The notes below the pieces were generated by a model. The model did not search any database. It was not told where the DNA came from and was given only the letters and a program-made list of their open reading frames with translations. Shown here in pieces: positions 13,392 through 64,000 of a stretch of DNA of 64,000 bases. The position numbers were made by a program, and so were the translations under genes. Numbering within the stretch: position 1 is the first letter of the stretch; each line of letters starts with the position of its first letter. Source of the DNA: Deltaproteobacteria bacterium. GTDB taxonomy: Bacteria > Myxococcota > Kuafuiibacteriia > Kuafuiibacteriales > Kuafuiibacteriaceae. The stretch lies in contig JAVJQW010000055.1 of the NCBI GenBank assembly GCA_040218735.1, positions 64,001 to 128,000 on the forward strand, in the 5' to 3' direction.

Positions 13392-13473
13392 GCAAGACAG
13401 GTTGCAAGGGTCCGGGCTCACGCATCGAAGGTATCATCGAGCTCTCGAAACGCGATTTGGCGCAGCTGGAGGA

Positions 13474-13515
13474 TGACGGTCCGACACGTGCGAGGACGCG
13501 CAATACGGACCGTCA
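13474..13515. repeat. Perfect 10-bp inverted repeat with nested inner stem, upstream of the HNH gene
   Basis: TGACGGTCCG (13474-13483) and CGGACCGTCA (13506-13515); inner GTGCG-AGGA-CGCGC. Confidence 0.7.
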
Positions 13516-14025
13516 GCGTCCGAAGACGAGTCCAAGTCCAAGAACTTCGAAATGCGCTGCGTTCGTCGAGCAGATGGCCCGGACAGGGCCCTTGATTCCG
13601 TCAACCCCCAAGAGAGAAAAAGAAACCGCTTCTGCAACTCAACTTGCGCGACCGGCCATCCCCCTTGACCAGCCGGCGAATCTCACCGGTTCATCGCAGC
13701 CCTCGACCGCCGCCGGCGCAATCCTCCGACGCTCAATCCGGTGGTCTCGTGAACGCGTCGAAGTCGGCGTGGATTACTCGCGGGCAAAGCCGCGAAGATC
13801 CATCTGGAGGATGACCGCGCAGCGAGCGCGACGTGGGGAGCATGGCGAGTGCCGCCGACCATCGAGCGGAGCCTCCCGCCGTCCTCGTGCCTACGTGGAG
13901 CGCGGAGCGCGCGGGCCGGCGCGGCACTTCGGTTTCGGGCGATGGGTCCAAGGCGCGTCGGGCGCTTCCTTCCCCGCCTACGGCCTTTCCATGTGGTCAG
14001 GTCCGCTAAATGAATGGCCTTGGCG

Positions 14026-15555: not shown

Positions 15556-15637
15556 GAGTGGCCGGTGCGCGTGAAATCCGTCACGTGAAAGCACCCCGTA
15601 ACTGCCACGCGCCGCTGCGCTGCGCACCATCGAAGCC

Positions 15638-16771: not shown

Positions 16772-16809
16772 CGTTGCGCGCGACGTCGCTCCGCTTGGAC
16801 AATGATCGC

Positions 16810-49700: not shown

Positions 49701-52700
49701 GACACCCACAGCGTCATCGACGACTCGTTCGGCCGCCCGCGGTCGTCCTTGGTGCGGGCGAGGACCGCGTACGGCCCGCCCTTCTTCGTCGTGAACGTGC
49801 AGGTCTGCTCGGCCTTGGTGACCGCGCACTTCTGCGGCTCGGCGTCGGCTTCGTTACTGAACGTGAACGTGAGCTCGGCGTCCGTCGGTGTCGCGAGGGC
49901 GCCGTCGAGCCCGACGTGGACGACGTCGATCTCGACGTCCTGACCCGCCTCCACGAAGTATCGCTCCGTCTTCAGCCCGATGTAGCGCTCCGACGGGTGA
50001 ACGAGGAACGACCCGGAGGCCGACCAGGTCTGACGGTTCACGTCCGAGACGGACGCCTCCGCCGAGACCACCGTCGGCCGCGGCGGCTCCACACCCTGAA
50101 GGTCGATGCGGAGGTGGTGCTCGCCGGATCCGTCGGTGGTCGCGGCGAAGCTCTTCGTGCTGGCCGGCCGGTGGCCGCGCCCGTGCCGTCCCCACCACCA
50201 CCAAGGTGACCACGTCCCAAAGACGAAGTCGGAGCGGTTGGGCGGGGTGTAGCTGCCCTCGTGCGAGCGAACTACCCATCGCACGTCCGCCGCCGCGAGC
50301 GGCCCCCCGGTGTAATAGGTCGCCTTGGACGAGAAGACGCCGTACTGACCGACGAGGTGCGGCCCCTCCGTGGTCGTCACGCCGACTTCGAACTCAGGCT
50401 TCCGGAACTCTTGAATCGAGAACGAGTGCGAGCCGCTGTACCCGGACTTCGAGCTCACGCCCGGCGCCGAGAATTGCGCGTAGGCGCGCCCGAGGTTCAC
50501 GTCGTCCGGCACCTTGAAGTCGAAGGCGAACCCACCGAGCTTCGACAGCTTCGTCTCACCCTTCGCGAACTCATTTCCGCGCGCGTCGCGCACCTTGTAG
50601 ACGAGGCGCCCTTCGTGCGCACCGAGCGATGCGACGTCGCCGTCCGGGCCTCGCGTCGTGCGGCGGAGGAAGCCCTTGATGTGCACGTCCTCCTTCGGCT
50701 TGTAGAGGCCGCGGTCGTCGAAGACGAAGTAACGGTAGCCGTCCGACTGCTCGTGCTGGATCCAGCTGCTGCCGCTCGAGCTCCAGTGGTTCTCGGGGAG
50801 GAGCGCGACGTCGTCGCCGCGCTTCGCAATCAAGAGCGCCGAGCGGTCGGGGCTCTTCGGCGGGAGGGCGAGCGTCGCGTAACCCTGTGCGTCAGCGGTG
50901 GCGGTCATCGGCGTGTTGGGCAGGACGGAGAGCTCCGCGGCGACGCCCGCGCCGTCGCTCAGCCGGGTGGCGAAGGTGTGCAGATCGGCGTGGTCGATCA
51001 GCGCGTCGAGGCCGATGTTCGTGACCTGCACCCAGCGGATCGCGCCGGGCCAGTACCACGAACGCTTCGGGTCGGGCTTGAAGCCGGCCGGTTGCACCCG
51101 GATGACGAGCTGTCCGTAGAAGTCGGTGAGCGCCGACGTGATATCGACCTTCGTCTCGACGAGTGTGTCTTGTCCGTCGGGTGCGTCGACGACGCCCGAG
51201 AAGACCTTCTTACCCGGCATGCGCGGAGCGTTCTTCTCGCGGTGGCGACGTTTGTAGTCGAGCCAGGCGTACCAGTCCTTCGGCTCGACCTTGTGGATGA
51301 GTACGTCGAGTTTGTCGTAATTGATCGTGTAGACCGACAAACTCGGTTTCTTCGTGCGCTCGAGCACCATGAAGTCACCGCCCGGAATGGTGAGCTGTGG
51401 CGCGGCGGGTCCGACGGCGATCTTGGTGTCGATCGCCTTGACCAGCTTCTGCCCGTAGACGTCCTCGAGCTCGGTACCGACGCGGAGGCGGTACGTCGTG
51501 CGCCCGACCGTCTTGCCCTGGATGTGAATCGAGCCGCCGCCGCTCGTGACCTTCACGTCCTCGATCGGCGGGTCGATTTTCACCATCTTCGCGTCGAAGT
51601 TCCCCATCGAGTTCGTCAGCTCGAGGGTGAAGGGCGCGCCGGGGTAACACGTCCCGCCCCACGCGCAGCGCGCGCGTCGGAACTCGAACGGACCGTACGT
51701 CTTGAACCGGTAGGTCTGGGTCTTGGTGGTCTTACGCGGGCCCTCCGCGGAAGGGAGTCCCTTCTCGAACACGACTTCGACGCTGGTCGCCTTCGGGAGC
51801 GGGCGCTGCACGACGAAAGCGATCGCGCGCTCCTCCTCCTGCGCGAGGCGCGCGGTGTAGCCGGCCGCCTCGATCTCCGCGGCCGTCGCGATGCGCGTCG
51901 CGACCCGCTTGCGGCCGGCCTTCACGGTGACCCGCGCGAGGACCGCCTTGGCGTCGACGCGCTGGTCGAACGTCGCGTACATCAGCGGCGTCAGGTTCGT
52001 GGTTCCGCCCGGCGAGAACGACTTCACCTGCGGGGGTGGCGTTCGGAACGTGTACTTCTCGGGCTCCTGCAGCGGTCCGCCGGTCTGGGACTTCAGCCCG
52101 GCGGGGATCGCGACCGTGAACGCGGTCGCCATCGGGAAGCGTGGCTTCGGCTCGAACAGCAGCGTGCGCGTGCCCGCCCAGCGCCACTGCCCCTCGACCT
52201 TCGGAGACAGGTTGGCCGGGAGGGCCTCCGCGAGCACCTGGTCGACGCTCGAAACCGGGACCATCGGCTGGGAGAACGTGATCGACAGGTGCGGCGCGAG
52301 CGGCACGTCGCCCTGCGGTTGCATCCGCTCGATCTTCAGCGGCTCGACCTGCGGCGCGGGTGGCTTCGGCCGGCTCACCTCGGGAGGGAACTTACCGAGC
52401 GTCGTCGCTCCGGCGAGCGGGAGCTTGCGCGTCGATGCGCGCATCGCGAAGTCGGCGCGGTCGGACGCCTTCGCGTCGATCGGCGGGAGGCGTGCGAGGA
52501 GGGGTTCAACCTCCGCCTTCGACAGCGCCCGAACCTCGGTCTTCTTCGCCGGCGGCGCGGCGGACTCCACGGGCGGCGGTTGCCCGTCGGTGAGCTCGAA
52601 GAGGAGCCCGCTCCCGCTCGGCTTGTCGGCGCCGGTCTTCAGCGTGATGTCACGGCTCGCGTGAATCTCGGTGGGCGGCGGCGCGCTCTTGGGCGGCGCC

Positions 52701-52792
52701 TTCGCCGGGGGCGGCGCCGGACTCTTGCCGGAGCGATCCGCAGAGCAGGCGAGCGCGAACAGAGCGAGCACGATCGAGGTACGCCGAAGCAT
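46760..52792 (-). CDS. Bacterial alpha-2-macroglobulin family lipoprotein
   Basis: Lipobox ALAC; DRGLYKP, EFRKPEF, PDNLTRYR, thioester YPYGCAEQ, AEEMYFPETFGRS. Confidence 0.95.
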   Translation of the reverse strand: MLRRTSIVLALFALACSADRSGKSPAPPPAKAPPKSAPPPTEIHASRDITLKTGADKPSGSGLLFELTDGQPPPVESAAPPAKKTEVRALSKAEVEPLLARLPPIDAKASDRADFAMRASTRKLPLAGATTLGKFPPEVSRPKPPAPQVEPLKIERMQPQGDVPLAPHLSITFSQPMVPVSSVDQVLAEALPANLSPKVEGQWRWAGTRTLLFEPKPRFPMATAFTVAIPAGLKSQTGGPLQEPEKYTFRTPPPQVKSFSPGGTTNLTPLMYATFDQRVDAKAVLARVTVKAGRKRVATRIATAAEIEAAGYTARLAQEEERAIAFVVQRPLPKATSVEVVFEKGLPSAEGPRKTTKTQTYRFKTYGPFEFRRARCAWGGTCYPGAPFTLELTNSMGNFDAKMVKIDPPIEDVKVTSGGGSIHIQGKTVGRTTYRLRVGTELEDVYGQKLVKAIDTKIAVGPAAPQLTIPGGDFMVLERTKKPSLSVYTINYDKLDVLIHKVEPKDWYAWLDYKRRHREKNAPRMPGKKVFSGVVDAPDGQDTLVETKVDITSALTDFYGQLVIRVQPAGFKPDPKRSWYWPGAIRWVQVTNIGLDALIDHADLHTFATRLSDGAGVAAELSVLPNTPMTATADAQGYATLALPPKSPDRSALLIAKRGDDVALLPENHWSSSGSSWIQHEQSDGYRYFVFDDRGLYKPKEDVHIKGFLRRTTRGPDGDVASLGAHEGRLVYKVRDARGNEFAKGETKLSKLGGFAFDFKVPDDVNLGRAYAQFSAPGVSSKSGYSGSHSFSIQEFRKPEFEVGVTTTEGPHLVGQYGVFSSKATYYTGGPLAAADVRWVVRSHEGSYTPPNRSDFVFGTWSPWWWWGRHGRGHRPASTKSFAATTDGSGEHHLRIDLQGVEPPRPTVVSAEASVSDVNRQTWSASGSFLVHPSERYIGLKTERYFVEAGQDVEIDVVHVGLDGALATPTDAELTFTFSNEADAEPQKCAVTKAEQTCTFTTKKGGPYAVLARTKDDRGRPNESSMTLWVSGGDNVPTSRNISEETVQLIPNKKTYATGDVAEVLVQAPFADAEGLWSLEREGVVKTGRFTMKGTSQVLEIEVEDRFTPNVHLRVILVGRQKRRNGEGKVDDTLPPRPAYAAGTMNIEVPPATRTLAIDLEPDAYEVEPGAKSRVAMTVKTADGAAAAGAEIAFYVVDEAVLALTSYATPDPLSIYPHRSNGVRVMRSRQFVYLADPEEVAQTAFAPEEDEAGLGDMESSGALMNRSARRKRAPAPAMKAAAEMAPGGGVGGGGAAPPIAVRKDFSALAVFRPSVTTDARGRAEVEFDFPDNLTRYRVIAVAAHGDNHFGVAEANITARRALMVRPSAPRFLNYGDTFELPVVLENRTGAPLSAQVVVRATNANVDAVGYAVEIPKEDRVEVRFPSSTDAPGRARFQFAAAANQYADAAEVDLPVWTPATTEAFATYGEIDKGAIVQPVVPPADVAKSFGGLEITTASTQLQALTDAYIYILDYPYGCAEQVSSRVITTAALKDVLEAFKAEGMPPKDQLVAAVGRDIKKLAQLQNSDGGWGWWRRGRPSRPFLTIHVMHALVRAQAKNFEVPKTVMNRGRQYLRDIDKHIDRTYGPGVRTTLVAFALYVRAMMGEIDGARAKKLIRSAGGVSKLPLEAAGWLYPVAVEAGELRAELAQLRRLFDNRATETAATAHFATSYEDGGHVLLHSARRVDALILEGLMRDQPKNTLIPKLVRGLLAHRTRGRWANTQESSWVLVALDRYFRQYEKLTPNFVARVWLGDQYAGDRTFEGRTTDQHLIDIPMAYLVDQPKQDLLLQKDGQGRLYYRIGLKYAPNDLMLEPASYGFEVKRTYEGVDDPNDVKRDEDGTWRFVAGARVRVKLTMINTGRRYHVALVDPLPAGLEPINAALAGSGSVPPDSPEYESPWFWWRRTWYVHDNLRDERAEAFSTTLWPGEHAYSYVARATTPGRFVVPPTKAEEMYFPETFGRSGTDRVVVE

Positions 52793-52875: not shown

Positions 52876-53598
52876 ATGAGCAGCAACCCGTTTGCCACGC
52901 CGCGCGCGAGCGCGGACCTCGAAGACGACAGCGGGCCCATTCCGCACCGGGGGCCGGTCAAGGCGGACTTGCGTCCGATCGAGCTGCTCAAGCGCGGTAA
53001 GGATCTCATCAGCGATCAATATTGGACGTTCTTTGGCGTGACGGGCCTCGGCATCCTGGTCGGTTCGGCGGCGCCCTTCGGCATCATCCTCGGACCGATG
53101 ATGTGCGGCATGTACCTGTGCCTGGTTCGGAAGGCGCGCGGCGACGACTCCGTGACCGTGAACGACCTGTTCAAGGGCTTCGACTTCTTCAAGCAGGGCT
53201 TCATCGCGATGATGATCGGGACGGTCGCGATCCTCTTGGCCATCGTCCCGTTCATGATCGCGCTGGTGGTGACGATCCGGAGCGACCCGGACTCGTTCAT
53301 CGCGGTGCTCTTGTCCATGTACGCGGCCATCTTCGCTCTGAGCATGCTCGTCAACGTGTTCATGATGTTCGCGTTCCCGCTCATCGTGGATCGCGGCTAC
53401 ACCGCGATCGATGCGCTGAAGACGAGCTTTCGCGCGGCGAAGATGAACCTGGGCGGGCTCCTCCTCCTCTCGCTCACGAGCGCGGTGGCCGGCCTCGTCC
53501 TCGCGCTCATGTGTTACGTCCCGGCGTTCCTGTTCATGCCGGTGAGCTTCGCGGCGTTCACGCTCGCGTACCTCGAGATCTTCCCCGACGCGGAGTGA
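52876..53598 (+). CDS. Integral membrane hypothetical protein
   Basis: N-terminal NPFATP; 5-6 TM helices; FPLIVDRGYTAIDALKTSF. Confidence 0.75.
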   Translation: MSSNPFATPRASADLEDDSGPIPHRGPVKADLRPIELLKRGKDLISDQYWTFFGVTGLGILVGSAAPFGIILGPMMCGMYLCLVRKARGDDSVTVNDLFKGFDFFKQGFIAMMIGTVAILLAIVPFMIALVVTIRSDPDSFIAVLLSMYAAIFALSMLVNVFMMFAFPLIVDRGYTAIDALKTSFRAAKMNLGGLLLLSLTSAVAGLVLALMCYVPAFLFMPVSFAAFTLAYLEIFPDAE

Positions 53599-53623: not shown

Positions 53624-55273
53624 TCAGGCGAGGCGATCCGAGAGGGCTTCGGTTCCGTCACCGCGGATGAGTTGGTCCGCCATGCGCTCGGCCACCGCCG
53701 CGATCGTGAGTGATGGGTTCACGCCGAGCGCGGAGGGGATGACGGCGCCATCCATCACGAAGAGGTTTCGATTGGTGAACGACTCGCCGTTGGCGTTGAC
53801 GATCCCCTCGGTGGGTTCGTCGGCCATGCGGCACCCGCCCAAGGGGTGGGACGTGTTGACGGTGCCGTCCTTGCGGTAGTTGTCGAGGAACAACTCACCG
53901 CCGAGGGCTTCGTAGATCCGGCGCATGGCGTCCACGGCTGCGCTCCAGCGCTCCTCGGTGCGGGCGGAGGTCTCGCGCCACCGGACCTGAACGCGGTCGC
54001 CGCTGAGGCCGATCTCACCTTCACACGCGTCGAGCGCGAGGCACCCCATCGTCAGGGAGCGCGCGCCGAACTCGGTGAGTTGTCGTTTGAAGTCGAAGCC
54101 CCAGTGACGGTGGCGTCTGCCGTCGTCACGCTCCGCGACGGTCGTGGAGCCGCGGCCGGTCGCGTCGGGGTGTTTCGGCGGGGACAGCGTCGAGATCTGT
54201 TCGAGCGCGGTGTAGAGCGGCGCCGCGTAGAACGGGATGAGGATGAATTGATGCTCGGGCCAGAAGCTCGGGCAGAAGCTCGACATCGGCTTGCCCTTGA
54301 AGCTCTCCACCCGCATCTCGAAGTCCGCGCCGACGCGCCCGGTGACACCGTAGTCACCGTTGGAGGAGAGGTTCTGGCCGAGCACGGCGCGGCCGTTTTC
54401 TTCGTCGCCGCGGTCGAGCGCGCGTTCGCCGACGAAGTGGTCGCGCGAGCGCATCAGCAGCGCCGACGACGCGACGCACCCGGCGGCGACGATCAGTACG
54501 CGGCACTCGATCTCGAACTCGACCTTCCTGCCGCCGCGGGTGTCGACGCCCTTCACGACGTAGCCGTCGTTGGTCGGTGCGATCGTGTCGACGTCGTGGC
54601 CGGTGCGGAACTCGACGCCGGACGCGAGGGCGTCGGCGAGGTAGTTCTTCGTGAGGTCTTGCCGCCCCGAGAAGCGCTGGCCCTGGTTCCACCAGCCCTC
54701 GTTGGCGTCCTGGTAGTCGGCGAGCTTGAGCGGCGCCGCGGTGGCGCCGATTCGGCGGCAGCCCTCCGCGAACACGAAGTCGCGCTTCGTCGCGAGCTGC
54801 CAGTGCGGGACGGTGGCGTCCGTCCACTCCAGCTTGTGCACGCGGAGTTTGTCCTCGACGACGCGGTACCAGGGGTCGAGCGCGGCGCGGTCGAATCCGG
54901 ACGGCCAGAGGCGTCGACCGCGGCGGGTCTGATCGAAGACGAGCTGCGGTGCCCGTAGGCTCACGCCGTCGTAGAGGAGCGAGCCGCCGCCGAGCCCTTT
55001 GCCGGTGACGACGTTCATACTCGCGACGCCGTCGCGGTAGGCGCCTTCGGTGTCGGTGAACAGCTCGCCGATCTCCGTGAGGTAGGTCGGCGACAACGAG
55101 TGCGCGAAGCGGTTGCCCTGTTCGTTGACTGGGGGGCCGTCCGAGGCGGGGTCGAAGCGCCCCGTGGGGTCGATGCCCTTGTCGAGAACGAGGACGCGGT
55201 TCGCGGCGGCGCCGAGGCGCGCGGCGGCGACCGCGCCGCCGAAGCCGGAGCCGATGATCACCACGTCGTGCAT
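53624..55273 (-). CDS. GMC oxidoreductase, cholesterol-oxidase-like
   Basis: DVVIIGSGFGGAV, GLGGGSLLY, HPLGGC, GVNPSLTIAAVAE; no signal peptide; TGATG-coupled to the upstream gene. Confidence 0.85.
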   Translation of the reverse strand: MHDVVIIGSGFGGAVAAARLGAAANRVLVLDKGIDPTGRFDPASDGPPVNEQGNRFAHSLSPTYLTEIGELFTDTEGAYRDGVASMNVVTGKGLGGGSLLYDGVSLRAPQLVFDQTRRGRRLWPSGFDRAALDPWYRVVEDKLRVHKLEWTDATVPHWQLATKRDFVFAEGCRRIGATAAPLKLADYQDANEGWWNQGQRFSGRQDLTKNYLADALASGVEFRTGHDVDTIAPTNDGYVVKGVDTRGGRKVEFEIECRVLIVAAGCVASSALLMRSRDHFVGERALDRGDEENGRAVLGQNLSSNGDYGVTGRVGADFEMRVESFKGKPMSSFCPSFWPEHQFILIPFYAAPLYTALEQISTLSPPKHPDATGRGSTTVAERDDGRRHRHWGFDFKRQLTEFGARSLTMGCLALDACEGEIGLSGDRVQVRWRETSARTEERWSAAVDAMRRIYEALGGELFLDNYRKDGTVNTSHPLGGCRMADEPTEGIVNANGESFTNRNLFVMDGAVIPSALGVNPSLTIAAVAERMADQLIRGDGTEALSDRLA

Positions 55274-56061
55274 CAGAGCAGGTCTCCGTTGGCGTCGAGC
55301 AGGGTCGCGAGGTCCTCGCCGGGGGTCGGGGCGGGCGTGCGGTTGAAGGTGTAGTCGTCGAGCACGCCCGCGGCGGCGAGGGCGCCGAGGTCTTCCGTCT
55401 CGGCGTCGACGAGGCGTCCGTCCGTCGTGCGCGGGTAGCCGCGAATCGCGATGTTCGCCGCGGGATCCTCGAACGGGGGGAAGCCGATCGCGACGAGGCC
55501 GGCCTTGGACTCGCCGCCGCCGAGCCACGCGAGGAAACACGCCGCGCGGAGGAAGGTCAGGCCGACGGCGCGCTCCGGATCTTCGAAGCCTTCGTCGATC
55601 GCGGCTTCCTGGAGGTCGCGGGGGAGCCGGCGGAACGCGGTGAACGGGCGTTGGTCGAAGGCGAGCGCGTCGAGGTCGGCGGCGAGCACCAAGCGCACGG
55701 CGTCGTCGAACGCCTCGGGGGTTCGGTCGAGGACGGCGGGGAGGACGGGGAGCAGGTTGAGCTCCCGAGCGGCCGGAACGAAATTCGCGAGCGCCAACAT
55801 CGCGAGGGTGTCGACGTCGTTCGCGCCGGGTGAGACGACTGACCCACTGGCGTCCCGCTCCGAGGGCAGGAGCACGTCGAACGCGACCCGCAGCGTGGCC
55901 TCCGCCTGGGTCAGCTCCTCGACCTCGCGGTACGTGTAGTTCTCGGGATCCAGGGCGTCGAACTTGCCTGGAGGGGGTTCTTCGGTGCGCACGCCGCAGG
56001 CCGCGCCCAGGCCGAGGAGGCCGAGCACCTGCATCACTTCGCGTCGGGAGAACCGCGTCAC
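55273..56061 (-). CDS. Tat-exported lipoprotein, gluconate-2-dehydrogenase subunit-3-like partner of GMC enzyme
   Basis: FSRREVMQ twin-arginine motif plus lipobox GAAC; DVLLP...PGA; FRRLPRDLQEA; IGFP. Confidence 0.7.
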   Translation of the reverse strand: MTRFSRREVMQVLGLLGLGAACGVRTEEPPPGKFDALDPENYTYREVEELTQAEATLRVAFDVLLPSERDASGSVVSPGANDVDTLAMLALANFVPAARELNLLPVLPAVLDRTPEAFDDAVRLVLAADLDALAFDQRPFTAFRRLPRDLQEAAIDEGFEDPERAVGLTFLRAACFLAWLGGGESKAGLVAIGFPPFEDPAANIAIRGYPRTTDGRLVDAETEDLGALAAAGVLDDYTFNRTPAPTPGEDLATLLDANGDLL

Positions 56062-56174
56062 CGTATCGTGCGTGTAGCAGCGGTCGAGTCGGGGGCTCTA
56101 TGACAATTTCCTGGAGTACGACTCTCGGATCCTGAAATGGAAGAAATCCACTCGCCTACGTAACGCAGTAGGTC

Positions 56175-58073
56175 GTGGGTCGCTTCGTGGGTCATCGCGT
56201 GCTCGGCATCGCTCTCGCGGTGTTCGGTCCCCCCGCGTGTTCCGCGGACCTGACCGTCGAGGCGCCGCTAGCCCCCCACGCGTGCGGCGCCTCGACGGGC
56301 CCACACGCCCACGACTACATCGTCGTCGGTTCGGGCGCGGGCGGCGGTCCGCTCGCCGCGCGCCTCGCACGCGCGGGGTGCCGTGTGCTCCTCCTCGAAG
56401 CCGGTGCCGACGTCGGCGGGCGCCTCGAGTACCAGGTGCCGGCGATGCACGCGCTCAGCACGGAGCACGAAGCGACGGCGTGGTCGTTCTTCGTCGGTCA
56501 CCACGCCGATTCGTCGATCGACCGAGAGGACTCCAAGTACACGGACGCCGGAATCCTCTACCCACGCGGGAGTGCGCTCGGCGGCTCGACGGCGGTCAAC
56601 GCGCTCGTCACCATCCGCCCCTCGCCGAGCGACTGGAATCGCCTCGCCCAGATCACCGGCGAGGCCGGCTTCCGCGCTGCGAACATGGACGGGTACTACG
56701 GCCGCGTCCGCGAGTGGCTCGACGTCGAGCTGCCGTCCCCCGAGCTCGCGGCCTCCGACGCGAAGATTGCGGACTACCTCATGGCCGCCGCCACCGCGTT
56801 TGCGAAGGACGAGGGGGCGCCGACGATCGACGGTCTGCCGGAGAACACCCGCGGCGCGGGCGCGCTGCACTCGCTCCTCGCGCACGACGTCAACGACGCC
56901 CTCGCCGACGGGGAGACCGCCGGCCTGTTCCGCCTGCCGCTCGCGACGAGCGCGGGCAAGCGCAACGGCACCCGTGAGTTCCTCGTCGACACCGCGGCGG
57001 AGGGCTACCCGCTCGAGATTCGCACCGGCGCGTTCGTGACCCGCGTCCTGTTCGAGCGGTTGTCGGCGCCGACGGCGGTCGGTGTGGAGTACCACCGCGG
57101 CGCGAAGCTCTACGGCGCGTCGATCGGCGCGCGCGGCGCGAGCGAGGGCGTCGAGGTCGCGTACGCGAACAACGAGGTCATCCTCGCGGCCGGCGCGTTC
57201 AACTCGCCGCAGCTGTTGATGCTGTCGGGCGTCGGCGATCCGGACCACCTCGCGGCGCACGGCATCGACGTCGTCGCGGCGCGCCCCGGCGTCGGTCGCA
57301 ACCTGCAGGACCGCAACGAGGTTGCCGTCGTGACCGAGTTCGACGAGGCGATCGACACCGTCGCGCCGTGCTCGCTGGGTGACGCGGAGGAGGATGACCC
57401 GTGCCTCGAAGCGTGGACGGAGGGGCAGGGCGTGTACCGGACCACCGGCTTCCTCGGCACGGTGCTGAAGCGTTCAACCCCCGACGTCGCGCTCGCCGAC
57501 CTGCAGGTGTTCGGCTCCCCCGGTGACGCGCGCGGCTACTACCCGGGTTACTCGAACGACGCGCTCGCGCAGGACGACCGCTTCTCGTGGCTCGTGCTCA
57601 AGGCGCACACCGAGAACCGCGACGGCCGCGTTTCCCTCGTGAGCCGCGACCCGTTCACGCGCCCCGACATTCGATTCAACTACTTCGACGAGGCGAACCC
57701 ACTCGCGGATCCGGATCTGAAGGCGGTCGTCGAGGGTGTGAAGTTCGTCCGCGAGATCATCGGAGAGATGCGCGACGACTACGACGAGGACGACCTCGTC
57801 GAGATCTGGCCCGGGCCGGAGGTGTCGACGGACGAAGCGATCGGCGAGTGGGTGCGGCGCGAGACGTGGGGCCACCACGCGTCGTGCTCCAACAAGATGG
57901 GCCTCGTCGACGACCCGATGGCGGTGGTGGACCCGACCTTCCGAGTCATCGGCGTCGACCGCCTCCGCGTGGTGGATGCGTCGGTCTTCCCGGAGATCCC
58001 GGGGACGTTCATCGCGGTGCCGACCTTCATGCTCTCCGAGCGTGCGGCCGACGTGATCCTGGAGGGCCTGTGA
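56175..58073 (+). CDS. Exported GMC oxidoreductase (choline-dehydrogenase-like), probable lipoprotein
   Basis: DYIVVGSGAGG, YPRGSALGGSTAVN, SPQLLMLSGVG, GRNLQD, HHASCS, LRVVDAS; N-terminal hydrophobic stretch ending PAC. Confidence 0.9.
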   Translation: MGRFVGHRVLGIALAVFGPPACSADLTVEAPLAPHACGASTGPHAHDYIVVGSGAGGGPLAARLARAGCRVLLLEAGADVGGRLEYQVPAMHALSTEHEATAWSFFVGHHADSSIDREDSKYTDAGILYPRGSALGGSTAVNALVTIRPSPSDWNRLAQITGEAGFRAANMDGYYGRVREWLDVELPSPELAASDAKIADYLMAAATAFAKDEGAPTIDGLPENTRGAGALHSLLAHDVNDALADGETAGLFRLPLATSAGKRNGTREFLVDTAAEGYPLEIRTGAFVTRVLFERLSAPTAVGVEYHRGAKLYGASIGARGASEGVEVAYANNEVILAAGAFNSPQLLMLSGVGDPDHLAAHGIDVVAARPGVGRNLQDRNEVAVVTEFDEAIDTVAPCSLGDAEEDDPCLEAWTEGQGVYRTTGFLGTVLKRSTPDVALADLQVFGSPGDARGYYPGYSNDALAQDDRFSWLVLKAHTENRDGRVSLVSRDPFTRPDIRFNYFDEANPLADPDLKAVVEGVKFVREIIGEMRDDYDEDDLVEIWPGPEVSTDEAIGEWVRRETWGHHASCSNKMGLVDDPMAVVDPTFRVIGVDRLRVVDASVFPEIPGTFIAVPTFMLSERAADVILEGL

Positions 58074-59266
58074 GAGCGCTCGCCGCGTTGCCGCTGCTGC
58101 TCGTCGGGTGCGGCGGCGAGCTCGTGTACTGCACCGACCTCGCGGCCGAGCTCGCGGAGTGTGACGTCGCGGCGACCGAGCTGTCGTGTGAGCTCATCAC
58201 GCTCGGCGACCGCGTCGCGCTGAAGAACGACTTCGACGCGCGCGGCTGCGACGCGGTGTGGAACGAAGACGGCGAGGTCGACGATCGCCTGTGTCGAGCC
58301 TTCAACTGGGACTGCCCGGAGCCGCTGCAACCCGCGCCGCACGAAGTGCCGCTCGCGAACCCCGTCGTGTTCGTGGGGGGCGTCGACAACGGCCCCGAGT
58401 TCGACTGGAACCCGGACGTCCTCGACCGCGTCGCGCGCGAGACCGGCGTCGATGTCTACCAGATCGCGCTGTCGGGCTGGGCACCGCGCGAGGTTCGCGC
58501 GCTCGAGCTGTGGCAAAAGATCCGTGTCGTCGCGACCGAGTCGCGGACGGGGCGCGTCAACCTGATCTGCTACGCGGTCGGCGGCCTCGACTGCCGGTTC
58601 CTCGTGAGCCCCGGCGGTCTGTTCGCGAACGACGCCGTGGGCGTCGAGGCGACCTCGAACGTCATCGCTTCGATCACCACGATCGCAACGCCGCACCGCG
58701 GAACCGACGTCGCGTCCGCGGCGCTCTACGCTTCGGACGAGGTCCTCGGCGCGGTGCTCGGACAGCGCGCCTCCTCCGGCCGGACGGACGCCGACGTCGT
58801 GCGCTCCCTCGAAGAGCTGACACCCGAAGCGATGGTCGAATTCAACGAGGTCGTGGTCGACGCACCGGACGTCGCCTACTACTCGTGGGCCGGCGTCACC
58901 CACTTCCTCGGTTCGTCGTTGTTCGTGAGCGAGGCGTCGATCCTCGAGCACTGCGTGGACGACTGGGACCGCCCGTCGATGCTGCGCCACCCCGACACGC
59001 AGGATCTGATGAGTGACCTCCTCGCGCCGGCCGCGCCGTTCGCGGGCCGGACGATCGATGCGTCCGGCGCCACCGCGACGAGTCCGCACGACGGGATGGT
59101 CTCCGTCGTCAGCGCGAAGTGGGGCGCGTTCATCGGCTGCATCCCGGCCGACCACTACGACGTGATCGGGCAGCACCACGACGGTGGCGCCGATCCGTAC
59201 ACCGGGTTCGATACCACGCGCTTCTACGCGAGCTGGATTCAGCAGCTCTTCGAGCGGGGGTTCTGA
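58070..59266 (+). CDS. Lipase-fold lipoprotein lacking the catalytic Ser (pseudo-lipase)
   Basis: Lipobox LVGC; VNLICYAVGGLDCR (Ala at the nucleophile position), TPHRGT, HDGMV, DHYDVIG. Confidence 0.85.
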   Translation: MRALAALPLLLVGCGGELVYCTDLAAELAECDVAATELSCELITLGDRVALKNDFDARGCDAVWNEDGEVDDRLCRAFNWDCPEPLQPAPHEVPLANPVVFVGGVDNGPEFDWNPDVLDRVARETGVDVYQIALSGWAPREVRALELWQKIRVVATESRTGRVNLICYAVGGLDCRFLVSPGGLFANDAVGVEATSNVIASITTIATPHRGTDVASAALYASDEVLGAVLGQRASSGRTDADVVRSLEELTPEAMVEFNEVVVDAPDVAYYSWAGVTHFLGSSLFVSEASILEHCVDDWDRPSMLRHPDTQDLMSDLLAPAAPFAGRTIDASGATATSPHDGMVSVVSAKWGAFIGCIPADHYDVIGQHHDGGADPYTGFDTTRFYASWIQQLFERGF

Positions 59267-60516
59267 TGCGCCGCCCGTGGGTCATCGGTTGCCTCGCGCT
59301 CTTCGCCTGCGATGGGTTCGCGGTCGATCAGGATGAGCGCTGCGAGGCGCTGAACCAGTCGATGCACGACTGCCTCGGCGAAGGGTTCCCGGAGATCTCC
59401 TGCGCGGGGATGAGCGACGCCGACATCGAGACGTTCGTCGACGGCGTCGAAGACTCCGAGTGTGAGTACTGGCGCGATGCGCTCCCCCAGGACGGTGATC
59501 TGCGGGCGTCTTACTGCCGCCTGTACGACGACGGCTGCGCGGCGGCGCGCAACCCGGCGCCCGCGAAGGCACCGACGCGTTACCCGGTGTTGATGGTGAA
59601 CGGCATCGATGTGTCGTTTGCATTCCGCTACAGCGACCGGATCTTCTACGTGATGCGCGAGGTCGCGGGGCACGACGTGCGCTTCGCGATCGTCCCGCCG
59701 TACGACGCGACGACGCGCCGCGCCGCGCGACTCTGGCAACACGTCCAGGACGTCAAAGCCGAGACCGGCGCCGAGAAGGTGAATCTGATCTGCCACTCGC
59801 TGGGGGGCCTCGACTGCCGCTACCTGGTGAGCCCCGGCGGGCTCCACTGGGAGGTCGAAGCGACGCACGAAGAGATCGTCGGTTCCGTCGCGTCGGTGTC
59901 GATGGTCTCGACCGCGCACCGCGGAACACGCGTCGCGGACGCTGCGCTCGGCGCGCTCCCCCACGCCGATCGTCGCGAGGCGCTCGACAGCATCGCGACG
60001 TTCGTCGGCGAGTGGTTCACGGAGGAGGCGCTCGAGCAGGACGTCGACCTGCGCGCGTCGGTCGCCGCGTTGAGCACGACGCAGGCGCGTGCGTTCAACG
60101 CGCAGATCGTCGACGCCGCCGGCGTCTACTACCAGTCCTGGGGTGGCTTCTCGCGCCCCTTCGGCTCCGACTCCGCGTCGCACGACGAACGCCTCGCGGA
60201 GGTCTGCACGCTCGACGACGGCACCGTCGCGGTGAGCACGTTCGCGGGTGAGCACGACTACCTCGCGACGTCGTTGTTGCCGAGCTACGAGATGGTCGGC
60301 CGCGAAGACGACGCGCGCCCCGACGACATCGAGCCGAACGATGGCCTGTGCACGATCGCGTCCGCCAAGTGGGGGCGCTTCCGAGGCTGCATTCCGATCG
60401 ACCACATGGAGCAGCTCGGGCAACTCAACCTGCCCGACGCCAACGTTCGGACCGGATTCGACGTCGCGTTCTTCTACGCGAACATCGCGACTGAGCTCGC
60501 GGGGATGGGGTACTGA
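59266..60516 (+). CDS. Triacylglycerol lipase/esterase-family lipoprotein
   Basis: Lipobox LFAC; KVNLICHSLGGLDCR, TAHRGT, NDGLC, DHMEQLG. Confidence 0.9.
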   Translation: MRRPWVIGCLALFACDGFAVDQDERCEALNQSMHDCLGEGFPEISCAGMSDADIETFVDGVEDSECEYWRDALPQDGDLRASYCRLYDDGCAAARNPAPAKAPTRYPVLMVNGIDVSFAFRYSDRIFYVMREVAGHDVRFAIVPPYDATTRRAARLWQHVQDVKAETGAEKVNLICHSLGGLDCRYLVSPGGLHWEVEATHEEIVGSVASVSMVSTAHRGTRVADAALGALPHADRREALDSIATFVGEWFTEEALEQDVDLRASVAALSTTQARAFNAQIVDAAGVYYQSWGGFSRPFGSDSASHDERLAEVCTLDDGTVAVSTFAGEHDYLATSLLPSYEMVGREDDARPDDIEPNDGLCTIASAKWGRFRGCIPIDHMEQLGQLNLPDANVRTGFDVAFFYANIATELAGMGY

Positions 60517-60517
60517 C

Positions 60518-60853
60518 ATGCGCCGGTTTGCGTTGGTGCTGTTGCTCGCGGCGTGTGACCCGGGGGTGGACCTCGCGGCGCCGGGGACGGTCTGCGCCGA
60601 TGCGCAGGACCACTTCCTGGAGTGCGGTGTTGCGCTCGGCATCCTGTCGGGCTCGACGTGCTCCGGCCCGGGGCGACTCGTCGCGGAGTGTGTGGTGGAG
60701 CGCGCCGGGTCGTGTGAGCGGCTCGCGTCGATCACCTACGACCAGTGCATCGCGGAGGCGGCGGAGCGCGCCGCGGAAGCCGCGGACGGACCGGGCTTCG
60801 ACCCGGTCAACCTGTTCAACCGGGCGCGGGACCAAGAGGAGGATGATTCATGA
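60518..60853 (+). CDS. Small 6-Cys helical lipoprotein
   Basis: Lipobox LAAC; C-x9-C module; coupled to both neighbours. Confidence 0.75.
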   Translation: MRRFALVLLLAACDPGVDLAAPGTVCADAQDHFLECGVALGILSGSTCSGPGRLVAECVVERAGSCERLASITYDQCIAEAAERAAEAADGPGFDPVNLFNRARDQEEDDS

Positions 60854-63225
60854 GGCACCTGACGGGATTCGAAGCGAAGGGGCGACGCATCGCCGAGCTG
60901 GTCCTCGCGCACCCGAAGAAGACCGTCGCGGCGTCGCTCGTGACGTTTGTCGCGTTCGCCGCCGGGCTCGTGTTCTCCGCGTTCTCGACCGACTACCGCA
61001 TCTTCTTCTCGGCGGAGGACCCGCAGCTGCTGGCGTTCGAGCAGCTCGAGCGCGTGTTCACCAAGACGGACAACGTGTTGTTCGTCGTGCACGACACCCG
61101 CGGTGACGTGTTCGATCGCGACACCCTCGCGTCGGTTCAGGCCATCACCGAGGCGGCGTGGAAGCTCCCCTACGCGAGCCGCGTCGACTCCCTCACGAAC
61201 TTCCGCAGCACACGCGCCGAAGACGAAGATCTGATCGTCGAGTCGCTGCTGAAGACGCCGGCCGCGAAGGCTTCGGACGCCGAGCTCCTCCGCGTGCGCG
61301 AGGCCGCAACGAGTGAGCCGCTGCTGGTCGGCGCGCTGCTGTCGCGTGACTACGCGACGACCGCCGTCAACGTGACGCTCCGCCTCCCCCGGAAGAGCCC
61401 GACGGAGGTCACCGATACCGCCGCCGCCGCGCGTGCGTTGGCGGCCGAGATCCAGGCTGCGCACCCCGGGCTCGAGGTTCGTGCGTGCGGGATGGCGCTG
61501 ATGAACGACGCGTTCATGGAGGCGTCCATCGAGGACATGTCGACGATCGTCCCGATCATGTACGCGGTGATGCTGCTCGTCATGATGCTGCTGCTGCGGA
61601 GCGGGCGGGCGACGGCGGCGATCGTCGCGATCGTTGCGCTCGCGTCGGGGGCGACCATGGGGCTCGGCGGGTGGCTCGGCTATCCGCTCACGCCGGTGAC
61701 GGCTTCGGCGCCGACGATCGTACTCACCCTCGCGGTCGCCGACGGCGTGCATATCTTTTCGTCGGTTCGCGAATATCTCGCGGCGGGCTACGACCGCCGA
61801 AACGCGGTCATCGAGTCACTCACGATCAATTTCCGTCCGGTGGTGCTCACCAGCGTGACGACGATGATCGGGTTCCTCTGTCTCAACTTCGCGGAAGCGC
61901 CTCCGTACTGGCACCTCGCAAACATGACCTCGGTGGGGATCCTGTTTGCGTTGGTCTTCTCGGTGACGCTCCTGCCCGTGATGCTCGTGTGGCTCGACAT
62001 CACGGAGCGCGCGGATGCTCCGAAGCGGTACGCGTGGCTGGATCGCTTCGCGGTCTTCGCGATCTCCGCCCCGAAGCTTTCGCTCGCGGTGGCGGCGGTG
62101 GCGACCGCAGTGCTCGGTCTCGCGGCCGCGCGCCTGCAATCCAACGATCACTTCCTGCAGTACTTCGACCACTCGATCGAGTTCCGCGGCGACGCGGAGT
62201 TCACGATGGAGCACCTCTCGGGGATCTACACGCTGGAGTACGCGATCGAGAGCGGCGAGGAGGGTGGGATCTCCGAGCCCGCGTATCTGGAGCGCCTCGA
62301 AGCGTTCACCGGGTGGCTCCGTGCACAGCCCGAGGTCGACCACGTCTACAGCTACACGGACATCGTGAAGCGGCTGAACCGCGACCTGAACGGGGGCGAC
62401 ACCGCATTCATGAAGCTCCCAGAGAGCCGCGAGCTCGCGAGTCAGTACCTTGTGCTCTACGAGATGTCGCTACCGTTCGGCCTCGACCTCACCGACCGCG
62501 TCGACATCAAGAAGTCCGCGACGCGTGTGTCGGTGATCGCCAAGGACCTCTCCAGCAGTCAGATGAAGGCGTTCAAGGAGCGCTCGGAGCACTGGCTGAA
62601 ACGCAACACCCCCCAACCCATGCACGCCCTCGCGACGAGCCCGGTGGTGATCTTCTCGCACCTCGCGGACCGGAACACGAAGAGCATGATGCGCGGGAAC
62701 GTCGCGTCGCTGGTGATGATCTCGCTGTGCCTCATCCTCGCGCTCGCGAGCCTGAGGCTTGGGCTGCTGTCGATCATCCCGAACGTCCTCCCGATCGTCT
62801 TCGGCTACGGGTTGTGGTCGTTGATGTTCTCGGAGATCAACATCGTCGCGTCGATCGTGGGGACGATCTGCCTCGGCATCATCGTCGACGACACGATTCA
62901 CTTTCTGTCGAAGTTCCAGTTCAAGCGGCGCGTCGAGGGGCTCGATGCTCGGAGCGCCGTCATCGAGACGATCAAGAACGTCGGTCCTGCGCTGATCGTC
63001 ACCACGCTCATCCTGGGGTGTGGGTTCGGCGTCCTCACGCAGTCCGGCTTCCAGATGAACCAGTACCTGGGATTGATGACCGTGATGGTCGTCGGCTTCG
63101 CGCTCGTCGCGGACCTGCTGATCCTCCCGCCGCTACTCGTGGCGCTCGAAGGGCGCCGACGTCCCGCAGAGACGTACACCAATGAATTCTCCCCGTCCGC
63201 GCACGGGGCCCGAGGAGTGCTCTGA
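60850..63225 (+). CDS. MMPL/RND-family transporter
   Basis: Two repeats of TM + periplasmic loop + 5 TM; LAVADGVH, LTSVTTMIGF, GIIVDDTIHF. Confidence 0.92.
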   Translation: MRHLTGFEAKGRRIAELVLAHPKKTVAASLVTFVAFAAGLVFSAFSTDYRIFFSAEDPQLLAFEQLERVFTKTDNVLFVVHDTRGDVFDRDTLASVQAITEAAWKLPYASRVDSLTNFRSTRAEDEDLIVESLLKTPAAKASDAELLRVREAATSEPLLVGALLSRDYATTAVNVTLRLPRKSPTEVTDTAAAARALAAEIQAAHPGLEVRACGMALMNDAFMEASIEDMSTIVPIMYAVMLLVMMLLLRSGRATAAIVAIVALASGATMGLGGWLGYPLTPVTASAPTIVLTLAVADGVHIFSSVREYLAAGYDRRNAVIESLTINFRPVVLTSVTTMIGFLCLNFAEAPPYWHLANMTSVGILFALVFSVTLLPVMLVWLDITERADAPKRYAWLDRFAVFAISAPKLSLAVAAVATAVLGLAAARLQSNDHFLQYFDHSIEFRGDAEFTMEHLSGIYTLEYAIESGEEGGISEPAYLERLEAFTGWLRAQPEVDHVYSYTDIVKRLNRDLNGGDTAFMKLPESRELASQYLVLYEMSLPFGLDLTDRVDIKKSATRVSVIAKDLSSSQMKAFKERSEHWLKRNTPQPMHALATSPVVIFSHLADRNTKSMMRGNVASLVMISLCLILALASLRLGLLSIIPNVLPIVFGYGLWSLMFSEINIVASIVGTICLGIIVDDTIHFLSKFQFKRRVEGLDARSAVIETIKNVGPALIVTTLILGCGFGVLTQSGFQMNQYLGLMTVMVVGFALVADLLILPPLLVALEGRRRPAETYTNEFSPSAHGARGVL

Positions 63226-63226
63226 G

Positions 63227-64000
63227 ATGAAGAAATCCACTACGATCACCGCCGTCGCGAGCGTTCTGCTCGCCGCCCCCGTCGCCTTCGCAGCGCTCGA
63301 CCGCGGCGAAGAGATCGCAAAGAAAGTCGCCGCCGCCAACCTGGGGTACGGGGACATGACCGCGCACCTCGAGATGATCCTCGAGGACGCCGAGGGGCAG
63401 TCGAGCCGCCGCGTCATGCGCGTGAAGTCGCTCGAGCGCCGCGCCGCCGACCAGGGTGACCTCTCCCTCGTGGTCTTCGAGAGCCCGCGCGACGTGAAGG
63501 GCATGGCGCTCCTCTCCCACGCGGGGGTCCTCGACGGTGACGAGCAGTGGCTCTACCTTCCCGCCGCCAAGCGGGTCCGGCGCATCGCCGGCGGAAACAC
63601 GTCGGGGCCGTTCGTCGGGAGTGAGTTCGCCTACGAGGACATCACGGGCACCGAAGTCGGAAAGTACGCCTGGCACTACGTCGCCGAGGGCCAGTGCCCC
63701 GGCGCCGCAGGGAAGTGCTTCCAACTCGAGTCGCGCCCGAAGTACGACGACTCCGGCTACAGCCGCCGGGTGGTGTGGGTCGACGAGTCGGCCTACCGGG
63801 TACACAAGATCGACTTCTACGATCGACGCGACGCGCTCCTGAAGACGCTCACGTACAAGAACTACAAGCAGCACGGTAAGTTCTGGCGGGCCGGTGAGTG
63901 GGAGATGAAGAACCACCAGAGCGGCAAGAAGACCCGGCTGGTGTTCACCGACTTCTCGTTCGGCAACGGCTTCGAAGAGAGTGACTTCCACCGCTCCGTG
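63227..64000 (+). CDS. Outer-membrane lipoprotein-sorting (LolA-like) protein, truncated at right edge; not in ORF track
   Basis: Manual translation MKKSTTITAVASVLLAAPVAFA...FESPRDVKGMALL...QWLYLPAAKRVRRI...FVGSEFAYED...KIDFYDRRDALLKTL. Confidence 0.88.
   Translation, partial: MKKSTTITAVASVLLAAPVAFAALDRGEEIAKKVAAANLGYGDMTAHLEMILEDAEGQSSRRVMRVKSLERRAADQGDLSLVVFESPRDVKGMALLSHAGVLDGDEQWLYLPAAKRVRRIAGGNTSGPFVGSEFAYEDITGTEVGKYAWHYVAEGQCPGAAGKCFQLESRPKYDDSGYSRRVVWVDESAYRVHKIDFYDRRDALLKTLTYKNYKQHGKFWRAGEWEMKNHQSGKKTRLVFTDFSFGNGFEESDFHRSV

Follow-up and report, generated by a model that had tools for sequence, protein, structure and literature searches.

A module made up of an inner-membrane pump from the RND (resistance-nodulation-division) superfamily, a periplasmic LolA-like protein and an outer-membrane barrel is common across bacterial phyla. 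Published hints tie such modules to alkanes, fatty esters and terpenes (PMC6304351, bioRxiv 10.1101/2020.07.04.188060, PMC6394551). AmeABCD of Castellaniella defragrans, which includes an HAE3 pump, a DUF1302 barrel and a LolA-like protein of the DUF1329 type, affects monoterpene tolerance (PMC6394551). For TOL_3187/TOL_3188 of Thalassolituus oleivorans, a fused MMPL-LolA-like protein was found 42-fold up on the n-C28 alkane, and the adjacent porin-like protein was detected on n-C28 only (PMC6304351). Genes for DUF1302, DUF1329, BNR and RND proteins are important when Pseudomonas putida grows on butyl stearate or Tween 20; a connection with an esterase or with the hydrolysis of esters was suspected by the authors (bioRxiv 10.1101/2020.07.04.188060). 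In aryl-polyene clusters, ApeL, ApeM and ApeN, among which are an RND, a LolA-like and a LolB-like protein, were proposed to place lipid in the outer membrane (PMC8253772), and such operons of Porphyromonas and Prevotella respond to iron (PMC10434189). Here, a nine-gene cluster is described in which a module of this kind lies together with genes for a lipase, a lipase-like paralog and two flavin oxidoreductases of the glucose-methanol-choline (GMC) family. It is located at the end of a stretch of 64,000 nucleotides (positions 64,001 to 128,000 of contig JAVJQW010000055.1, assembly GCA_040218735.1) from a deltaproteobacterium of the Myxococcota. This stretch is referred to as the window.

Identification and conservation of the cluster

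The gene model was based on third-position G+C and on inspection of the start codons of the reading frames; at about 69% G+C, the window contains many spurious frames. Nine genes were defined, which are arranged in two divergent arms (Table 1). Eight of them start in the window, and the ninth, the barrel gene, begins just outside. The genes are closely packed: three junctions are overlaps of four bases (ATGA or GTGA), one is an overlap of a single base, two are gaps of one base, and the largest gap within an arm amounts to 11 bases. One of the four-base overlaps joins the stop codon of the TatLP gene to the start of GMC-L, and the start codon of LipA is a GTG overlapping the GMC-R stop. All genes named in the initial annotation, a reading of the window from its sequence, were recovered in this model by reading frames, Pfam matches and motifs, and the tight coupling within two divergent arms that had been noted there is evident from the junctions. 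The start of the left GMC gene had to be corrected from 55540 to an ATG farther downstream, at 55276. It had also been suggested to look beyond 64 kb for an outer-membrane barrel gene, and the ninth gene, porin-like according to its structural model, was found there.

To place the cluster in other genomes, a profile of LipB relatives (25 sequences) was scanned against one genome per species, 185,579 species in total. Thirty-eight stretches matched, 33 of which encode a relative, and these represent 31 distinct loci. The records behind all 31 bear the name of a myxobacterial lineage or merely a generic label. The cluster genes were then located in the loci by tblastn with the nine proteins. All nine genes were detected in the same order in 16 of the 31 loci. 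In the remaining 15, the absent genes fall past the end of the available sequence, as in ten loci (L001, L007, L010, L016, L018, L021, L022, L024, L028 and L031), or the small, divergent CysLP was not detected by tblastn, as in four loci (L012, L013, L023 and L029) in which it is the only gene missing and a gap of 400-800 bases lies at its expected place. Gene order is rearranged in three loci (L013, L027 and L028), in which linkage is nevertheless kept. Beyond the nine genes, no flanking gene family common to more than four of the 31 loci was observed; the unit is therefore considered to consist of these nine genes. Co-occurrence of the genes in other genomes, which the initial annotation had named as a check on its proposal, is thus documented by 31 loci, including the rearranged ones. 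The nine-gene cluster is not a chance arrangement, and its genes are inherited together.

Among 401 sampled genomes of Myxococcota, the full LipA-LipB tandem is present in nine, which belong to three families, and the cluster is accessory and patchy in its distribution. Five of the nine products (TatLP, GMC-R, LipA, LipB and CysLP) carry lipoprotein signals that are kept in the orthologs. For the last four of these, a Cys follows the hydrophobic stretch of the signal in essentially all orthologs; the lipobox pattern itself missed a few orthologs with unusual residues in front of the Cys. An earlier statement that nearly all soluble components are lipid-anchored or exported holds for these five proteins, but it overlooked GMC-L, which lacks a signal peptide. 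Taken together, we infer a self-contained, nine-gene accessory cluster of Myxococcota with a predicted envelope location for every product. No description of the cluster or of its gene combination was found in the literature, for which coverage of subscription journals was thin; as a unit it is apparently undescribed, and it is composed of parts of known kinds and two orphan families.

Table 1. Features of the nine-gene cluster, in window coordinates
Feature	Position	Strand	Description
GMC-L	53624..55276	-	550 aa, GMC-family FAD oxidoreductase, cholesterol-oxidase-like, without signal peptide
TatLP	55273..56061	-	262 aa, twin-arginine lipoprotein, orphan family, predicted partner/export carrier of GMC-L
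divergent spacer	56062..56174	.	113 bases between the arms, presumed promoters (from position only)
GMC-R	56175..58073	+	632 aa, lipoprotein GMC oxidoreductase, choline-dehydrogenase/alcohol-oxidase branch
LipA	58070..59266	+	398 aa, lipoprotein pseudo-lipase, nucleophile Ser replaced by Ala, Cys-rich N-terminal domain
LipB	59266..60516	+	416 aa, lipoprotein lipase, intact Ser-Asp-His triad, Cys-rich N-terminal domain
CysLP	60518..60853	+	111 aa, lipoprotein with six invariant Cys, no known family
pump	60850..63225	+	791 aa, RND-superfamily inner-membrane protein, MMPL/HAE3 type
LolA-like carrier	63227..64018	+	263 aa, periplasmic; last 18 bases outside the window
barrel	~64030..65217	+ side of contig, outside the window	395 aa, porin-like, signal peptide, C-terminal YFF

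The lipase pair and the small Cys-rich lipoprotein

LipA and LipB are paralogs (31% identity, E 3e-54), and in both a lipoprotein signal is combined with a Cys-rich domain at the N-terminus, some 90 residues long. In LipB, the Ser-Asp-His triad was found in the order typical for alpha/beta-hydrolases, with the motifs CHSLGG, NDGL and DH in all orthologs. All 32 sequences examined have CHSLGG as their nucleophile elbow, and neither D359 nor H380 varies. In LipA, the corresponding motif is C[YW]A[VI][GAS]G in every one of 30 sequences (CYAVGG in this genome), so that Ala takes the place of the nucleophilic Ser; this count omits the rows of L012 and L022, which are LipB genes mis-assigned to LipA. 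Despite the loss of the Ser, LipA has retained the Asp (DG), the His (DH) and eleven or more cysteines. As the Ser is lost in all LipA sequences, the exchange is ancient and maintained, which argues for a non-catalytic role rather than decay. The combination of a dead and an intact lipase that had been pointed out initially is consequently real and old.

The nearest solved relatives of LipB are family I lipases of Burkholderia, Pseudomonas and Proteus, with E values from 1.5e-13 to 1e-10, and the likeness of LipA to this family is weak (E 4e-9). The Ser region of LipB aligns with GHSQGG of the Burkholderia lipases, while its Asp/His region aligns only weakly. At least 419 relatives of LipB were obtained, and those that are named are labelled triacylglycerol lipase by one source. 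Family I.1 and I.2 lipases have a gene for a lipase-specific foldase next to them. No foldase match was obtained among the nine gene products with Pfam and NCBIfam models, and no extra conserved neighbour is present in the loci. A third, shorter lipase paralog without the Cys-rich N-terminal domain is encoded elsewhere in this genome (G000:C66:213787-214605; G000 denotes this genome). Its identity with LipA and LipB is about 34%, in alignments covering 59-68% of these proteins, and most other sampled genomes of Myxococcota contain a single lipase of this shorter kind.

CysLP had been recognized initially as a lipoprotein with six cysteines, and the alignment of 23 sequences verified this: the lipobox Cys as well as C26, C36, C48, C58, C66 and C77 are invariant. 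No match was found in Pfam, even at E values up to 10, and none reaching 0.9 in the Atlas. A comparison of CysLP with the N-terminal domain of the lipases by hhalign gave a probability of 89.7% over 49 columns, with the signal peptide inside the aligned part, and a relationship between the two is possible but no more than a lead. Some orthologs of CysLP are extended at the C-terminus. In L002-L006 and L025 the extensions are Cys-rich repeats with a DNDGDG-type motif, whereas in L008, L027, L028 and L030 they consist of a stretch of about 100 residues common to these four loci.

The two GMC enzymes and the twin-arginine lipoprotein

GMC-L matches the Pfam families GMC_oxred_N (PF00732) and GMC_oxred_C (PF05199) with 60.2 and 64.4 bits, respectively, both above the gathering scores. 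GSGFGG, HPLGGC and GVNPSLTI, the motifs on which its initial assignment had been based, were all three read in the protein. Among solved proteins, the closest to it is the cholesterol oxidase of Streptomyces (E 2.5e-24, 88.7 bits with the single protein), and with a profile of 23 orthologs this enzyme was matched with an E value of 1.9e-30 versus 7.3e-12 for the next family. Neither H477 nor N520 varies among the 23 orthologs, and both align with HPLGGC and GVNP of the cholesterol oxidase 4U2L. The active-site His and Asn of the class I, GMC-type cholesterol oxidases are therefore present in GMC-L; in Streptomyces numbering, we take these residues to be His447 and Asn485, and Glu361 to be the isomerisation base. 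On the NCBIfam model for cholesterol oxidase, NF058674 (ChoxAB), GMC-L reached only 90 bits, the cut-off being 850. Moreover, residues ~290-477, the substrate-binding part, where an equivalent of Glu361 would be expected, could not be aligned to cholesterol oxidase in searches with the single protein or with the profile.

A signal peptide was not detected in any of 24 copies of GMC-L, all of which begin directly at the motif binding flavin adenine dinucleotide (FAD). TatLP, in contrast, has the features expected of a lipoprotein exported by the twin-arginine translocation (Tat) pathway: R6 and R7 (RR) and the lipobox residue C22 occur without exception in the 25 sequences compared. Otherwise, no convincing likeness of TatLP to a described protein was found. 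No Pfam family was matched at E values up to 10, the best E value in a profile search of the PDB was 0.06, which is chance level, Foldseek gave no match at E <= 0.001, and the best hit of VIA-align against 48,161 chains had a Z score of 4.2. Neither a fold nor a family could therefore be named. The 43 relatives detected by profile search, all with E values below 1e-58, are unnamed or designated 'hypothetical', and none has a Pfam domain. The AlphaFold model of TatLP is helical, with a mean predicted local distance difference test (pLDDT) value of 79.

Modelling of a complex of GMC-L with mature TatLP gave a score of 0.93, and the best of three controls gave 0.00. In a benchmark, 116 of 157 solved complexes attained this mark, as did two of 215 mismatched pairs; since our own alignments went into the present model, the counts apply to it only roughly. 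Three runs agreed on at least 85% of the contacts, the pLDDT of the partner was at least 79, and the modelled interface contains invariant residues of both proteins, WTD 151-153 of GMC-L and DYT 236-238 of TatLP. Export of proteins as passengers is known for other flavoprotein dehydrogenases. From the lack of a signal peptide in GMC-L and from the modelled complex it seems likely that GMC-L leaves the cytoplasm by the Tat pathway with TatLP as its carrier, which afterwards also serves as its anchor.

GMC-R is a distant relative of GMC-L (27% identity over the FAD domain) from a different branch of the GMC family. It matches GMC_oxred_N and GMC_oxred_C with 92.2 and 98.8 bits, again above the gathering scores, and a Cys follows the hydrophobic stretch of its signal in all orthologs shown. 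With the choline dehydrogenase BetA models TIGR01810 and PRK02106, 252 and 283 bits were obtained, short of the cut-offs of 732 and 605. In the PDB, fatty-acid photodecarboxylase and choline dehydrogenase ranked first (E ~1e-36), and choline oxidase and alcohol oxidases are also near. WGHH is invariant in 27 aligned sequences, and FPEIPGTF occurs in all but two of them, which have FPRIPGTF. Grouping of the GMC proteins with sugar or choline dehydrogenases, together with inactivity on lipids, had been named initially as a finding that would speak against the proposal. GMC-R does group with choline dehydrogenase. Enzymes for long-chain alcohols fall in the choline-dehydrogenase/alcohol-oxidase branch as well, and for this reason the placement of GMC-R settles nothing.

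The pump, the LolA-like carrier and the barrel

The MMPL/RND and LolA-like identities assigned initially to the last two genes starting in the window were confirmed by Pfam. The pump matches MMPL with 111.6 bits (threshold 20.5), and weaker matches to Patched and to the sterol-sensing domain were also seen. Among RND models, the HAE3 model TIGR00921 scored best, with 143.3 bits, below its cut-off of 351.9. The carrier matches LolA_like (PF17131) with 189.5 bits, well above the gathering score of 30, and has a signal peptide without lipobox in 24 of 25 sequences. In four of 24 loci (L013, L015, L024 and L026) pump and carrier are fused into one reading frame, and in 11 others their genes overlap by four bases. 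When longer relatives of the carrier were searched, 212 proteins were detected in many phyla; in this search, which was restricted to longer proteins, most are about 1,050 aa in size and contain MMPL and LolA_like domains.

Orthologs of the barrel were found in every locus extending that far. The AlphaFold model of the barrel is all beta (mean pLDDT 87.8), and Foldseek matched it to porins with 16 to 18 strands (E ~1e-9, TM ~0.5). At the sequence level there was no match in the PDB and, for an ortholog that was searched, no Pfam family at E values up to 10. DUF1302 (PF06980) did not match the barrel in Pfam; in the Atlas, where the nearest clusters are porin-like, it came up as a lead and no more. 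In 21 of 25 orthologs a lipobox-like Cys follows the signal peptide, suggesting that most of these proteins may be lipidated barrels; the copy in this genome has an ordinary cleavage site.

The genome contains eight LolA_like genes. Those outside the cluster adjoin RND pumps or ABC permeases of the FtsX/MacB type, and none of them adjoins a lipase or GMC gene. At two sites, L034 (G000:C4:105500-121500) and L035 (G000:C23:466500-479415), the pumps are about 1,290 aa in size, with an N-terminal WD40 beta-propeller fused to MMPL. Each of them adjoins one or two LolA_like genes, and a radical SAM gene is additionally present in L035. In L037 (G000:C17:239500-255500), genes for a periplasmic protein of the phosphonate-binding type, an MMPL pump of 934 aa, a protein of 165 aa and a LolA_like protein follow each other in a row (3325..8291). 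The pairing of a binding protein with an RND pump is reminiscent of the sterol transporters BstA/BstB, in a genome without a cyclase match (see below). In L036 and L038 (G000:C58 and G000:C6) the neighbours of the LolA_like genes are the FtsX/MacB-type permeases and not RND pumps; in L036 a TetR regulator comes before the LolA_like gene, and in L038 a 509-aa protein without Pfam family follows.

Expression and surroundings

The spacer between the arms presumably holds promoters. No sigma-70-like site was found in its 113 bases, where 0.6 would be expected, and promoter and terminator scans gave nothing above shuffled sequence. Judged from gene spacing alone, the genes of each arm are probably co-transcribed. 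In one RNA library, short contigs with 90-98% likeness fall on GMC-L, GMC-R, LipA, the pump and the carrier, and one spans the GMC-L/TatLP junction, six genes in all; these contigs may represent carry-over of DNA and cannot show a transcript, its start or its level, and the uncovered stretches are uninformative. The stretch harboring the cluster, or DNA nearly identical to it, is present in metagenomes of sponges, aquaculture and biofloc, and one metagenome contig of 42 kb spans it entirely with 165 differences.

In one of the other loci, L010, TatLP and GMC-R are separated by a gene (1800..3449) for a sigma-54 activator whose sensor domains are XylR_N and V4R, possibly a sign that the genes respond to a hydrophobic effector there. 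The same cluster is interrupted by an insert of 8 kb with a reverse-transcriptase gene (11161..19080) and no pathway genes. Next to the cluster in the window, a frame of 2010 aa with a lipoprotein-type N-terminus, known from its translation only, lies just upstream (46760..52792, minus strand). It is followed by a gene for a membrane protein of 240 aa (52876..53598, plus strand), which matches the BPSS1780 model with 39.9 bits, below the cut-off of 90, and is not found beside the cluster elsewhere. Past the end of the window, between 67798 and 78134 in window coordinates, frames were recognized by eye that resemble a GH3-type adenylating enzyme, a carboxyltransferase, a KAS III-type synthase, a short-chain dehydrogenase and a second MMPL-type pump. 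None of these is conserved next to the cluster in other genomes.

Proposed function and alternatives

While the cluster as such is confirmed, its initial interpretation as a surface machine that hydrolyses, oxidises and traffics a hydrophobic substrate is partly supported. With moderate confidence, the cluster can be regarded as an envelope unit whose enzymes hydrolyse and oxidise a hydrophobic ester and whose transporter takes a lipid across the periplasm. The substrate would most likely be a very hydrophobic, ester-type lipid, and sterol esters, wax esters and cutin-type polyesters are candidates. In such a unit, LipB would cleave the ester, and LipA might act as its non-catalytic binding or regulatory partner. 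Alcohol groups released in this way would be oxidised by the GMC enzymes, of which GMC-R may use a long-chain primary alcohol and GMC-L a secondary one, sterol-like or other. GMC-L is envisaged to fold with FAD in the cytoplasm, to bind TatLP, to cross the membrane as its passenger and to remain anchored through the lipid of TatLP. The proton-driven pump, the carrier and the pore would move a lipid across the periplasm, which may be the product, a helper lipid or another one.

A number of observations weigh against this proposal. Among the nine genes there is no cytoplasmic enzyme, no regulator and no electron acceptor. RND pumps are known to export, which is a poor fit with simple uptake and catabolism. 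Both GMC proteins stay far below the curated thresholds of every named family, and their substrates are therefore guesses. In GMC-R, the second catalytic residue of the GMC family should, as we assume, be located at the PGTFIA stretch, and neither His nor Asn is present at this position, so that its chemistry may be unusual. The score of the complex between GMC-L and TatLP is the confidence of the model itself and not a measurement, and in L027 about 5 kb separate the two genes. The RNA contigs are a weak hint of expression and may, as stated above, be carry-over of DNA. Finally, a tandem found in only nine of 401 genomes cannot serve a core function of the envelope.

A more specific explanation, put forward in the initial annotation, is a sterol-ester pathway, in which LipB would act as a sterol esterase, GMC-L would be a genuine cholesterol oxidase for sterols of prey or host, and the pump would remove or move the sterol or a ketosteroid. 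Part of it stood up, since GMC-L does show a distant likeness to Streptomyces cholesterol oxidase, by far its nearest solved relative, and has kept the His and Asn motifs. The weak Patched and sterol-sensing-domain matches of the pump point in the same direction, and some family I lipases act as cholesterol esterases. The other part did not: the low score on the cholesterol-oxidase model and the unaligned substrate domain speak against a true cholesterol oxidase. In addition, we know of no cholesterol oxidase that needs a partner subunit, yet one is predicted for GMC-L, and GMC-R is left unexplained. A model for oxidosqualene cyclase, to which hopene cyclases respond as well with lower scores, was used to look for sterol synthesis. 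It had no match in this genome, which is 96.5% complete, nor in G108 and G034, while matches above 700 bits, resembling oxidosqualene cyclase, were obtained in the other six of the nine sampled genomes bearing the cluster. The family that holds most carriers has the cyclase in 102 of 172 genomes; because the cyclase is so common there, the six of nine are confounded by kinship, and no association was drawn. In this genome, the missing cyclase match makes sterols or hopanoids of its own, and hence an endogenous sterol cargo, unlikely. Sterols of prey are a possible substrate, but overall the sterol-ester idea is weakly supported, and we consider it unlikely.

Doubtful to about the same degree is a function in export or remodelling of the cell's own lipids. 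The triad would then bring a lipid made by the cell itself to the surface or the outer membrane, where the lipoprotein enzymes would trim or oxidise it in the course of maturation and not of catabolism. The direction of transport would agree with that of known RND pumps. Characterised relatives of the pump export own lipids, for example HpnN, described as a hopanoid transporter (PMC6394551), and the proposal for ApeLMN concerns aryl-polyene lipids placed in the outer membrane (PMC8253772). A biosynthetic gene, however, is found neither in nor beside the cluster, and no flanking family recurs in more than four loci. A match to a sterol or hopanoid cyclase is missing from this genome, few sampled genomes of the phylum carry the cluster, and a lipase together with two oxidases resembles degradation more than synthesis.

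Still less probable is that lipoproteins are the cargo. Pump, carrier and barrel would then form a proton-driven, Lol-like route that extracts the five lipoproteins of the cluster, with GMC-L riding on TatLP, and directs them to the outer membrane, the surface or vesicles. The conserved lipobox Cys in five of nine products and the LolA-like domain of the carrier are in line with this idea. So is the location of other LolA_like genes of the genome next to permeases of the FtsX/MacB type, the kind that drives release of lipoproteins, and a route-dependent enzyme would suit the 'missing esterase' puzzle of P. putida (bioRxiv 10.1101/2020.07.04.188060). On the other hand, the triad is widespread without genes for lipoprotein enzymes. 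To our knowledge, no RND protein moves lipoproteins. If true, the widespread orphan triad would be a second system for lipoprotein sorting and not a lipid pump. In a milder version, the cluster may reveal the class of cargo of the triad, which would be fatty esters or the alcohols and acids derived from them.

A predatory weapon, in which prey membranes would be attacked by the lipase and by oxidases presumed to produce peroxide, with the transporter for delivery or self-protection, is very improbable: myxobacteria are predators deploying hydrolases, GMC oxidases can make hydrogen peroxide and the cluster is accessory and patchy, but its enzymes have lipoprotein anchors instead of secretion signals, and no immunity-type gene or link to a secretion system lies beside it.

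An envelope unit for hydrolysis and oxidation of a hydrophobic ester coupled to lipid movement is thus the preferred explanation. Its significance lies in the module of pump, LolA-like protein and barrel, for which the cluster supplies a first enzymatic clue as to what may be handled. As the module is inherited with a lipase and two alcohol-type flavin oxidases, defined candidate substrates are available for bench tests. Further points of interest are the pseudo-lipase conserved beside its active paralog, the orphan Tat lipoprotein as the probable carrier and anchor of a cholesterol-oxidase-like enzyme, and the two protein families without known relatives. Practical use of the enzymes is conceivable if steryl or wax esters turn out to be the substrates.

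Comparison with known systems

Comparisons of the cluster with described enzymes and transporters revealed likeness in parts. GMC-L and Streptomyces cholesterol oxidase (PDB 1B4V, 4U2L) have the FAD-binding domain, HPLGGC and GVNP in common, but GMC-L is about 50 residues longer, lacks a signal peptide of its own and has a predicted obligatory partner. LipA and LipB share the order of the Ser, Asp and His positions and the flanking motifs with the family I.1 and I.2 lipases (PDB 1YS1, 1EX9, 4HS9). The match of LipB to these enzymes reaches E 1e-13 only and is confined to the first half, and its elbow is C-H-S-L-G and not G-x-S-x-G. The Cys-rich N-terminal domain, the lipoprotein anchor and the dead paralog alongside are additional to the known family.

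The arrangement of GMC-L and TatLP is reminiscent of gluconate 2-dehydrogenase, fructose dehydrogenase and the glucose dehydrogenase of Burkholderia, in which a GMC-type FAD subunit without signal likewise occurs beside a small subunit with a Tat signal, presumably exporting it as a passenger. TatLP differs from those small subunits in being a lipoprotein, in the absence of any Pfam match at E values up to 10 and in the lack of a clear fold match. This includes subunit 3 of gluconate 2-dehydrogenase, to which neither sequence nor fold gave a clear match, although the two could still be distantly related. The cytochrome subunit of these dehydrogenases has no counterpart in the cluster.

Among the transporters, ApeLMN has a LolB-like DUF3261 protein as its third component instead of a barrel, and its genes lie in a biosynthetic cluster (PMC8253772), which is not present here. 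Like the triad of this cluster, AmeABCD joins an HAE3-type pump, a LolA-superfamily protein and a dedicated barrel, it is connected with very hydrophobic compounds, and it has neither a membrane-fusion protein nor TolC (PMC6394551). Its components are different in detail: AmeA is a DUF1302 protein of 605 aa, AmeB a DUF1329 protein of 451 aa, and a fourth, Ycf48-like protein is part of the system, while the barrel here has 395 aa and no Pfam family, the carrier has 263 aa and a fourth protein is missing. Lipase or GMC genes, as in the present cluster, are not part of AmeABCD (PMC6394551). TOL_3187/TOL_3188 are similar in that a pump with MMPL and LolA-like domains has next to it a porin-like protein lacking conserved domains, and the same fusion of pump and carrier occurs in four of 24 loci of the cluster. 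This likeness follows from their published description, in which they are known from induction by n-C28 only and no enzymes are described beside them (PMC6304351). In P. putida, the corresponding genes, PP_0765/PP_0766 and PP_2018/PP_2019, are divided between two loci, include a BNR protein in addition to DUF1302 and DUF1329 and have no lipase encoded alongside (bioRxiv 10.1101/2020.07.04.188060). In the cluster described here, by contrast, the lipase genes share a predicted operon with the triad of barrel, LolA-like protein and RND pump.

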